This document shows positions 37,224 through 38,051 of a stretch of 64,000 nucleotides of DNA, one piece after another; position 1 is the stretch's first letter, and each line of letters starts with the position of its first letter. The notes below the pieces were generated by a model. The model was given only the letters and a program-made list of their open reading frames with translations. It was not told where the DNA came from and ran no database searches. Location: the sequence record MZ417521; one strand, written 5' to 3'. Source of the DNA: Escherichia phage 132. The position numbers were made by a program, and so were the translations under genes.

Positions 37224-37299
37224 TGGTCGAGGCAGTAGGGATCGAACCTACGACCTAGGACTTAGAAGGTCCTTGCTCTTCCTTCTGAGCTATGCCTCG
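37224..37299 (-). tRNA. tRNA-Arg (anticodon TCT)
   Basis: Cloverleaf folded by hand: D stem GCTC/GAGC, anticodon loop CTTCTAA, T arm GTAGG-TTCGATC-CCTAC, 3' CCA encoded. Confidence 0.8.
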
Positions 37300-37303
37300 G
37301 ATT

Positions 37304-37378
37304 TGGCGGACGTGATAGGATTCGAACCTATAACCAATCGCTTAACAGGCGATCGCTCTGCCATTGAGCTACACATCC
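37304..37378 (-). tRNA. tRNA-Asn (anticodon GTT)
   Basis: Acceptor GGATGTG/CACGTCC, anticodon stem ATCGC/GCGAT with loop CTGTTAA, T loop TTCGAAT, CCA encoded. Confidence 0.75.
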
Positions 37379-37382
37379 AAAT

Positions 37383-37469
37383 TGGTGGGGAGTGATGGAG
37401 TCGAACCACCCGAGTCGCAATGACAATGGATTTACAGTCCACACCGCTACCTCTACGGGATAACTCCCC
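37383..37469 (-). tRNA. tRNA-Tyr (anticodon GTA), long variable arm
   Basis: Acceptor GGGGAGT/ACTCCCC, anticodon loop CTGTAAA, long variable arm, T loop TTCGACT, CCA encoded. Confidence 0.7.
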
Positions 37470-37478
37470 AAATTAATT

Positions 37479-37553
37479 TGGTGGCCCTGGGTGGAATTGA
37501 ACCACCATCTGGCGATTATGAGTCGCTTGCTTGAACCTTCCAGCTACAGGGCC
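37479..37553 (-). tRNA. tRNA-Ile/Met (anticodon CAT; likely the lysidine-modified AUA-reading Ile as in T4)
   Basis: Acceptor GGCCCTG/CAGGGCC, anticodon loop CTCATAA, CCA encoded; 1 nt from tRNA-Thr. Confidence 0.75.
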
Positions 37554-37554
37554 T

Positions 37555-37630
37555 TGGTGCTGATTGACGGAATCGAACCGCCGACGTCCTCATTACAAGT
37601 GAGGTGCTCTACCTACTGAGCTAAATCAGC
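37555..37630 (-). tRNA. tRNA-Thr (anticodon TGT)
   Basis: Acceptor GCTGATT/AATCAGC, anticodon stem-loop CCTCA-CTTGTAA-TGAGG, CCA encoded. Confidence 0.8.
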
Positions 37631-37635
37631 AAAAC

Positions 37636-37725
37636 TGGCGGAGGCGATAGGATTTGAACCTATGAGTCGCCGGAGCGACTGCCGGTTTTCAAGACCGGTG
37701 CATTAAACCACTCTGCCACGCCTCC
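37636..37725 (-). tRNA. tRNA-Ser (anticodon TGA), long variable arm
   Basis: Acceptor GGAGGCG/CGCCTCC, anticodon loop CTTGAAA, long variable arm, CCA encoded. Confidence 0.8.
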
Positions 37726-37727
37726 AG

Positions 37728-37801
37728 TCTCCGCGGCAGGATTTGAACCTGCGACATTCTGCTCCCAAAGCAGACGCTCTACCAAACTGAGCTACACGGA
37801 G
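37728..37801 (-). tRNA. tRNA-Pro (anticodon TGG)
   Basis: Anticodon stem TCTGC/GCAGA with loop TTTGGGA, T loop TTCAAAT; CCA not encoded; 2 nt from tRNA-Ser. Confidence 0.75.
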
Positions 37802-37811
37802 TAAATTAAAT

Positions 37812-37885
37812 TGGAGCGGATAATGAGAATCGAACTCACATCATCAGATTGGAAGTCTGAGGTAATGCCATTATACGATATCCGC
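37812..37885 (-). tRNA. tRNA-Gly (anticodon TCC)
   Basis: Acceptor GCGGATA/TATCCGC, anticodon loop CTTCCAA, T loop TTCGATT, CCA encoded. Confidence 0.8.
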
Positions 37886-37890
37886 AAATT

Positions 37891-37977
37891 TGGTGCGAGA
37901 AGTGGGACTCGAACCCACAAGGAAATCATTCCGCAGCATTTTAAGTGCTGTGCCTTTACCAATTTGACCATTCTCGC
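37891..37977 (-). tRNA. tRNA-Leu (anticodon TAA), long variable arm
   Basis: Acceptor GCGAGAA/TTCTCGC, anticodon loop CTTAAAA, long variable arm, CCA encoded. Confidence 0.8.
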
Positions 37978-37978
37978 G

Positions 37979-38051
37979 CTGGGAATAAAGGACTCGAACC
38001 TTTGCATCCTGGAATCAAAATCCAGTGCCTTACCAACTTGGCTAATTCCCA
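37979..38051 (-). tRNA. tRNA-Gln (anticodon TTG)
   Basis: Acceptor TGGGAAT/ATTCCCA, anticodon stem-loop CTGGA-TTTTGAT-TCCAG; CCA not encoded; 1 nt from tRNA-Leu. Confidence 0.8.

Follow-up and report, generated by a model that had tools for sequence, protein, structure and literature searches.

Why does a phage closely related to T4 carry transfer RNA (tRNA) genes for tyrosine and asparagine that T4 itself does not have, and are these genes sound? The question is raised by a cluster of tRNA genes at 37224-38051 in a stretch of 64,000 nucleotides from Escherichia phage 132 (sequence record MZ417521), which is referred to below as the window. Coordinates are window positions, and features lie on the minus strand unless stated otherwise. 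The cluster is very probably an ordinary allele of the T2 type, that is, the type of Tequatrovirus tRNA region without segB: ten functional tRNA genes that would serve codon supply plus a counter-defence role of tRNA-Tyr, and a target of the homing endonuclease SegB in the Asn gene. Every sequence-level defining feature of the T2L/RB3-type allele that was tested here is present in the window. The arrangement as such is already known, being annotated in hundreds of genomes, with its genetics published in 2008 and 2026, and offers nothing new as stated. Only two aspects are mildly unusual, namely a non-canonical linker in tRNA-Tyr and the wide horizontal distribution of its gene.

Composition and allelic type of the cluster

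ARAGORN finds exactly ten tRNA genes in the window, all within 37224-38051 on the minus strand, and the same ten genes score above the gathering threshold of Rfam RF00005 (29 bits). In the order of transcription they are tRNA-Gln (UUG; 37978-38051), tRNA-Leu (UAA; 37891-37977), tRNA-Gly (UCC; 37812-37885), tRNA-Pro (UGG; 37727-37801), tRNA-Ser (UGA; 37636-37725), tRNA-Thr (UGU; 37555-37630), a tRNA with the anticodon CAT (37479-37553), tRNA-Tyr (GUA; 37383-37469), tRNA-Asn (GUU; 37304-37378), and tRNA-Arg (UCU; 37224-37299). Long variable arms are present in the Leu, Ser, and Tyr genes, and G73 in the Asn gene. Nine of the genes score 59.3-74.1 bits with E-values of 1e-10 to 1e-14, at which a chance origin of the matches is not an issue; the highest score belongs to Asn (74.1 bits) and the lowest to Tyr (30.2 bits). 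At a permissive threshold further Rfam matches appear (tRNA-Sec with 34.4 bits on the Tyr gene, Plastid-ycf2 antisense, sX4, and YrlA). They remain far under their gathering scores, and we took them as echoes of tRNA structure.

The genes and their 3' flanks were printed by a script. The spacers measure 1 nucleotide (nt) between Gln and Leu, 2 nt (CU) between Pro and Ser, and 1 nt between the CCA of Thr and the CAT tRNA. CCA is encoded for eight of the ten tRNAs, including Ser (37636-37638) and the CAT tRNA (37479-37481). The exceptions are Gln, in which the next nucleotide is C, followed by G1 of Leu, and Pro, which is followed by CT. A sequence-only reading of the window had described ten minus-strand tRNAs in this very order, with spacers of 1-2 nt for Gln-Leu, Pro-Ser, and Thr-Ile that fit dimeric precursors, and with CCA encoded for all but Pro and Gln; ARAGORN, Rfam, and the printed flanks agree with it in each respect. 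The ARAGORN run that it had proposed accepts all ten genes, and the prediction programs do not reject the folds of Tyr and Asn, on which that reading had staked itself: Asn is the best of the ten, and Tyr is accepted by ARAGORN and narrowly passed by Rfam.

No open reading frame (ORF) lies between the tRNA genes of the window, hence there is no segB ORF there. A mechanical ORF list places several ORFs of 40-86 amino acids (aa) on both strands across 37168-38121, for example at 37823-38059 on the plus strand, which are artefacts of the tRNA sequence. In some deposited genomes, such as that of IME340, a "hypothetical protein" is annotated over the cluster in place of the tRNAs.

The window is that of a Tequatrovirus. 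Over the 1 kilobase (kb) surrounding the cluster, the identity to phage vB_EcoM_IME340 is 99.8%, and 397 phage records match 80% or more of the query region 37150-38150; in relatives such as ECO07P1, the annotation lists these ten tRNAs in identical order. The genomic position is also that of the T4-type tRNA region, which is bounded upstream by the trna.4/.3/.2 ORFs and gene 1/57A/57B, and downstream by rnaD, rnaC, and the e.8-e.5 ORFs. The leader and the upstream ORF are co-linear with T4, and an ORF for dNMP kinase is found at 40508-41233.

In T4 (NC_000866) the order is Gln, Leu, Gly, Pro, Ser, Thr, Ile, segB, Arg, rnaD, and rnaC. A three-way alignment reveals that the window follows T4 closely from the upstream ORF to the end of Thr, diverges completely beyond this point, and resumes its likeness to T4 at rnaD and rnaC. 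The two phages thus share the flanks, the upstream leader, rnaD and rnaC, the 1-2 nt spacing of the three close pairs, and the first six tRNAs with 84-100% identity (Gln 65/73, Leu 87/87, Gly 73/74, Pro 62/74, Ser 87/87 in its body, and Thr 75/76). The differences in Gln and Pro are mostly compensatory stem changes, those of Gln including the anticodon stem. In the divergent block, the window carries the CAT tRNA, Tyr, Asn, Arg, and an ORF of 116 aa (36857-37207), whereas T4 carries an Ile and an Arg of its own, with segB between them where the window has Tyr and Asn. The 116-aa ORF lies directly 3' of Arg, belongs to the conserved phage family phrog_3355 of unknown function, and is absent at this position in T4. 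Since the CAT tRNA matches T4 Ile at only 47 of 74 positions, the window Arg shares about half of its positions with the Arg of T4 and T6, and the 116-aa ORF is present as well, the difference from T4 reads, by alignment, as a whole swapped cassette and not as two inserted genes.

The comparison with NC_000866 bears out the earlier claim on Tyr and Asn, which sit between the CAT tRNA and Arg in the window and have no counterpart among the eight tRNAs of T4. Their description as lying beyond the canonical T4 set is right as to this absence and overstates the oddity, as the Tyr-Asn pair is the commoner allele and was described in 2008 for T2L, RB1, and RB3 (PMC2330249). The pair is found nearly full length, and usually annotated, in 395 phage records including RB3, and a full-length segB is found in 126 records of the phage collection. 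These counts indicate that the ten-tRNA form is the commoner one and the eight-tRNA form of T4 the less common.

Brok-Volchanskaya et al. sequenced the tRNA regions of T2L, RB1, and RB3, which are without segB and carry Met(CAT), Tyr, Asn, and Arg (PMC2330249). Like the window, these regions have the CAT tRNA, Tyr, Asn, Arg, and then small ORFs after Thr, no segB, and a preferred SegB site in the Asn gene. For RB3 (NC_025419) the Tyr-Asn segment is 99.4% identical to that of the window. The likeness to T2L rests on its published description, in which two ORFs are reported in the region, compared with the single 116-aa ORF between Arg and rnaD in the window. We find nothing of substance that separates the window from the T2L/RB1/RB3 allele.

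According to the same study, SegB cuts preferentially at a 27-base-pair (bp) site inside the T2L tRNA-Asn gene, which starts the homing of segB and the exclusion of that region (PMC2330249). We reconstructed this site from the text of the paper and not from its figure, using the core GGTTCRANTCC and the nucleotides G6, A16, G18, A26, and A27 that set it apart from the weaker site in the Ser gene. When the 3' ends of the window Asn and Ser genes are lined up, exactly the five stated differences are reproduced, giving GGTTCGAATCCTATCACGTCCGCCAAA. The only exact match of this sequence in the window covers 37302-37328, at the 3' end of Asn, and shuffles contain none. The Asn gene would therefore carry the preferred target of the T4 homing endonuclease SegB, as a putative site that matches the reconstructed T2L site. 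Such a target would explain why segB stands in place of Tyr and Asn in T4 and in place of Asn in T6. Because the preferred target of SegB is the Asn gene, the eight-tRNA state of T4 is most simply explained as a product of segB invasion. The T4 set would then be a derived minority state brought about by a homing endonuclease, which should not be taken as the baseline.

T6 presents an intermediate arrangement. Like the window, it has tRNA-Tyr after its CAT tRNA, with 2 of 87 positions different and an identical variable arm. Unlike the window, it has segB where the window has Asn, lacks Pro, Ser, and Asn, and carries Ile and Arg of the T4 type. The T6 mosaic thus runs (1094-2385 of the compared stretch) Gln, Leu, Gly, Thr, a T4-type CAT tRNA with CCA, a window-type Tyr, segB, and a T4-type Arg; its segB is labelled "serine recombinase" in AP018814. 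SegB-driven tandem amplification of tRNA-Tyr was reported for T6 by Chihara et al. in 2026 (PMC13096335). This route should be unavailable in cis to phage 132, because no segB lies next to its Tyr gene.

A further Tequatrovirus variant with eleven tRNAs, exemplified by Yersinia phage fPS-65, has the same ten tRNAs in the same order with ~98% identity, and differs by an extra tRNA-His in ~190 bp between Asn and Arg. The tRNA-His with a spacer of ~115 bp (1657-1846 of the compared stretch in fPS-65) is present in many close relatives, and the ~190-bp insertion occurs in about half of the best 40 matches.

Structure and identity of the Tyr and CAT tRNAs

The Tyr gene has A73, an encoded CCA, and an atypical linker of 4 nt before the D stem. 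Its 30.2 bits in Rfam compare with 33 and 41.6 bits for two homologues and 53.4 bits for host tyrU, and the copy of phage KpV477 falls under the threshold. Single-sequence folding of the gene is no better than that of shuffles (z = -0.91), and the minimum-energy fold is not a cloverleaf. To the alignment of the gene we admitted eight homologues, comprising the window, T6, one Vequintavirus, two Tequintaviruses, two Jiaodaviruses, and one E. coli plasmid. The canonical register of the D stem (10-13 with 22-25) was tried on this alignment and rejected, as pairing is seen in only 64% of the cells and is wholly absent for one of the pairs. Moving the D stem by 2 nt in the 3' direction gives a linker UAUC, a stem CCGU/GCGG, and a loop AGAGGUA. 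In this register 99.4% of the cells are paired overall and 100% in the D stem, among seven distinct homologues from four phage genera and the plasmid, and 6 of the 24 pairs have compensatory changes on both sides. The covariation score is reached by none of 500 shuffles, and slid controls pair at 45-61%.

Other evidence converges on the shifted register. RNAalifold predicts it independently, the Rfam alignment of the gene also places the D arm in it and loses its score in the acceptor stem, and the loop AGAGGUA fits the universal A14-R15-G18-G19-A21 pattern. On the evidence of this alignment, the Tyr gene has two extra nucleotides between the acceptor and D stems, conserved across phage groups. 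The two extra nucleotides would explain the low Rfam score, the labels "tRNA-OTHER" and "tRNA-Pseudo-GTA", and the missing annotation in some records.

Two alternatives have to be weighed for these neighbouring genes. The Tyr gene could be a decaying pseudogene that is carried along and no longer works as a tRNA, and the near-threshold score, the poor pairing in the canonical register, and the unremarkable folding energy are what such a gene would present. The copies in Karamvirus phages point the same way: they have one further extra base and are rejected by ARAGORN, and one of them is annotated as tRNA-Pseudo-GTA. These Karamvirus copies may really be decaying. For the window gene, we regard decay as extremely improbable, since all helices pair once the D stem is shifted by 2 nt, with the six compensatory pairs across distant phages, and since the D-loop pattern, A73, the GUA anticodon, the long variable arm, and CCA are all in place. 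The T6 copy, 2 nt different, is moreover seen on a northern blot and rescues the phage from the defence system Septu (PMC13096335), and mutation of the anticodon or a stem in the T5-family homologue abolishes rescue (PMC11555353). The Tyr tRNA is thus easily missed or called a pseudogene owing to its odd D-arm region, and a near-identical copy works experimentally and acts against host defence. That the linker itself is an adaptation and not a tolerated defect, for example by altering, through a changed geometry of the elbow or core, how tRNA-cutting nucleases or modification enzymes see the molecule, appears improbable to us.

The second alternative concerns the CAT tRNA, which could be an elongator tRNA-Met instead of a tRNA-Ile reading AUA. 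Its anticodon is CAT, and programs that name tRNAs by the anticodon say Met (ARAGORN, and with it many GenBank records); the corresponding T2L gene was named tRNA-Met (PMC2330249), and the sequence is unlike the proven tRNA-Ile of T4. In 5424 of 5426 E. coli genomes, however, the best match of the CAT tRNA is a gene annotated as tRNA-Ile, with 81.6% identity over the full length. Alignment with K-12 ileX, metT, and metU reveals that the CAT tRNA has in common with ileX the acceptor stem GGCCC, including C4:G69 and C5:G68, and the anticodon stem GCGA/UCGC, in contrast to metT and metU, which have U4:A69, A5:U68, and the anticodon stem AUCA/UGAU. The pairs 4:69 and 5:68 are the major identity elements of E. 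coli TilS (PMC11947777). Codon usage also argues against Met. When 91 heuristic window ORFs (18,628 codons, 35% G+C) are compared with 35 annotated genes of an E. coli K-12 derivative (12,576 codons), AUA is enriched 6.1-fold and AUG is depleted (0.81-fold). By its identity elements the CAT tRNA is well supported as the Ile2 (lysidine) type, the sequence-only reading having likewise called it Ile and not Met; we consider tRNA-Met very improbable. Naming tRNAs by the anticodon mislabels such an AUA-reading tRNA as Met.

Codon supply and counter-defence

What the tRNAs do for the phage can be approached from the same codon comparison. The 12 cognate codons of the ten tRNAs rank 1, 2, 3, 5, 6, 7, 8, 10, 20, 25, 33, and 39 of 61 by the phage/host ratio (Mann-Whitney p = 6e-5). 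AAU has the largest absolute excess of any codon, with 46.1 against 13.4 per 1000 (+32.7), and UAU is used at 36.9 per 1000 in the phage against 13.2 in the E. coli sample (+23.7). Among amino acids, Tyr is the most enriched (1.86-fold), followed by Lys and, in third place, Asn (1.60-fold). The plus-strand block at 43-64 kb, which by analogy with T4 would hold the late structural genes, has 47 Tyr codons per 1000, compared with 26 in the host sample, and 68 Asn codons per 1000, compared with 38. The comparison of the Asn and Tyr codons between late genes and host, which the sequence-only reading had proposed, thus finds both enriched, and the codon data fit tRNA supply.

In the mechanism that we propose, the tRNAs would supplement those of the host for codons and amino acids used far more by this genome of 35% G+C than by E. 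coli. Eight of them would read the A-ending codons AGA, AUA, GGA, UCA, ACA, UUA, CAA, and CCA, and Tyr and Asn would read the two-codon boxes of two amino acids in which the phage proteins are strongly enriched.

A second role is suggested for Tyr by work on its relatives. The 87-nt Tyr tRNA of the window differs only twice from the T6 copy, and its 3' half is identical to the Tequintavirus copies. T6 tRNA-Tyr is expressed, and its overexpression or amplification rescues T6 from Septu, a system that cleaves tRNA-Tyr within the variable arm; T4, which has no tRNA-Tyr, cannot escape (PMC13096335). The T5-family tRNA-Tyr needs its anticodon and stems to counter retron-Eco7 (PMC11555353). By analogy with these homologues, the Tyr tRNA of the window very probably has a second, counter-defence role, in which an extra tRNA-Tyr would buffer the phage against host defences that cut tRNA-Tyr, such as Septu and the PtuAB of retron-Eco7.

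The distribution of the Tyr gene is wide. It is found with 82-96% identity in Vequintavirus, Tequintavirus, Jiaodavirus, and Karamvirus phages and on 273 E. coli plasmids, which are ~70-110 kb in size and phage-like in look, with a DNA ligase, PhoH, and an Asn-Tyr-Thr-Ser tRNA cluster. No blastn match to Tyr is present on any E. coli chromosome. Its occurrence on phages and plasmids and not on chromosomes suggests horizontal spread of an accessory tRNA, which would have reached at least five phage groups as well as the phage-like plasmids. We considered and rejected a recent origin of Tyr or Asn by capture from the host, since Tyr has no chromosomal blastn match and the best match for Asn is a partial one, of 79%, to a prophage tRNA-Thr. 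This tRNA-Thr, the closest chromosomal match to the window Asn, lies in a lambdoid prophage of E. coli strain 82.0311, in which a tRNA-Asn and the tRNA-Thr are situated between the Q antiterminator and the lysis genes (19917-20072 of the examined stretch). The coliphage-type Tyr gene is also carried, with ~96% identity as in Vequintavirus phages, by 18 records named Campylobacter phage (for example MG065677, 140.9 kb), which may be mislabelled or contaminants.

It may be asked whether counter-defence is in fact the main reason for which the extra tRNAs are kept, so that Tyr, Asn, and, in the eleven-tRNA variants, His would replace tRNAs destroyed by defence or toxin nucleases, and the codon match would be a by-product of A+T richness. 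The experiments on the T6 and T5-family Tyr homologues speak for this, and so does the sharing of Tyr by unrelated phage groups and the plasmids, a pattern that points to selection on a mobile accessory gene. Tyr, Asn, and His are also three of the four queuosine tRNAs, which colicin E5 cuts, and this too counts toward counter-defence. Phage tRNAs and colicin E5 are discussed in PMC10264068. In the literature examined, however, we found no defence that targets tRNA-Asn and is countered by a phage tRNA-Asn; in PMC11555353, a phage tRNA-Asn served only as a negative control against PrrC170. Compared with E. coli tyrU and asnT, the window Tyr and Asn have unchanged anticodon loops, hence no escape mutations in the loop, and the codon data agree well with supply. 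Counter-defence as the main reason is therefore possible and, to our judgement, rather unlikely. The two roles are compatible and not exclusive, and the queuosine-type tRNAs Tyr, Asn, and His might form an accessory module selected against nucleases that target this class.

Several points weigh against the cluster being ten functional genes that act in both roles, and they should be set beside the evidence above. Tyr clears the Rfam threshold by little, and ARAGORN or Rfam rejects some of the related copies. The phage side of the codon comparison consists of heuristic ORFs, one of which, of 78 codons and antisense to the tRNAs, is spurious; the host side is a sample of only 35 genes from one E. 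coli region. The enrichment is correlative and would be expected also from A+T richness, and Lys is enriched as well, with no phage tRNA for it here. Septu cuts T6 tRNA-Tyr as well, and T6 was only partly protected by a single copy (PMC13096335); the cutting implies that protection depends on dose. Finally, co-transcription and dimeric precursors, which are treated in the next section, are carried over to phage 132 from T4.

Expression, processing, and flanking features

In T4, pairs of tRNAs are processed through dimeric precursors. By extension from T4, the genes of the window would be co-transcribed with the upstream ORFs, and host RNase P and 3' trimming exonucleases would cut out the tRNAs, with Gln-Leu, Pro-Ser, and Thr-Ile processed partly as dimeric precursors. 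The host CCA-adding enzyme would complete Gln and Pro, the only two that need it here. In T4, Ser (...CCG-UAA) and Ile (...UCA-UAU) are also without an encoded CCA, in addition to Gln and Pro. As Ser and the CAT tRNA encode CCA in the window and not in T4, phage 132 should depend less than T4 on host 3' trimming and CCA addition.

A scan for sigma-70 promoters returned 17 sites against 13.4 +/- 3.4 in shuffles, which is no excess, and no promoter was assigned. Upstream of Gln, an ORF of 95 aa (38149-38436; phrog_2023) occupies the position of T4 trna.2, and the leader of 97 nt between the two is nearly identical to that of T4.

On the other side of the cluster, beyond the 116-aa ORF, two homologues of T4 stable RNAs follow. 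The homologue of rnaC (species 1) at 36601-36739 is identical to T4 at 136 of 139 positions, and that of rnaD (species 2) at 36746-36860, with approximate boundaries taken from the alignment, at 88 of 119. No Rfam family matches the two homologues at 36601-36860. Downstream (3') of the rnaC homologue lies a terminator-like hairpin with a stem of 10 pairs, including 7 G-C pairs, and a T run after it (36527-36550). From its sequence, this strong hairpin, read from 36550 to 36527, is likely to be the end of the transcription unit of the tRNAs and stable RNAs. The rnaD homologue is variable in its middle compared with T4.

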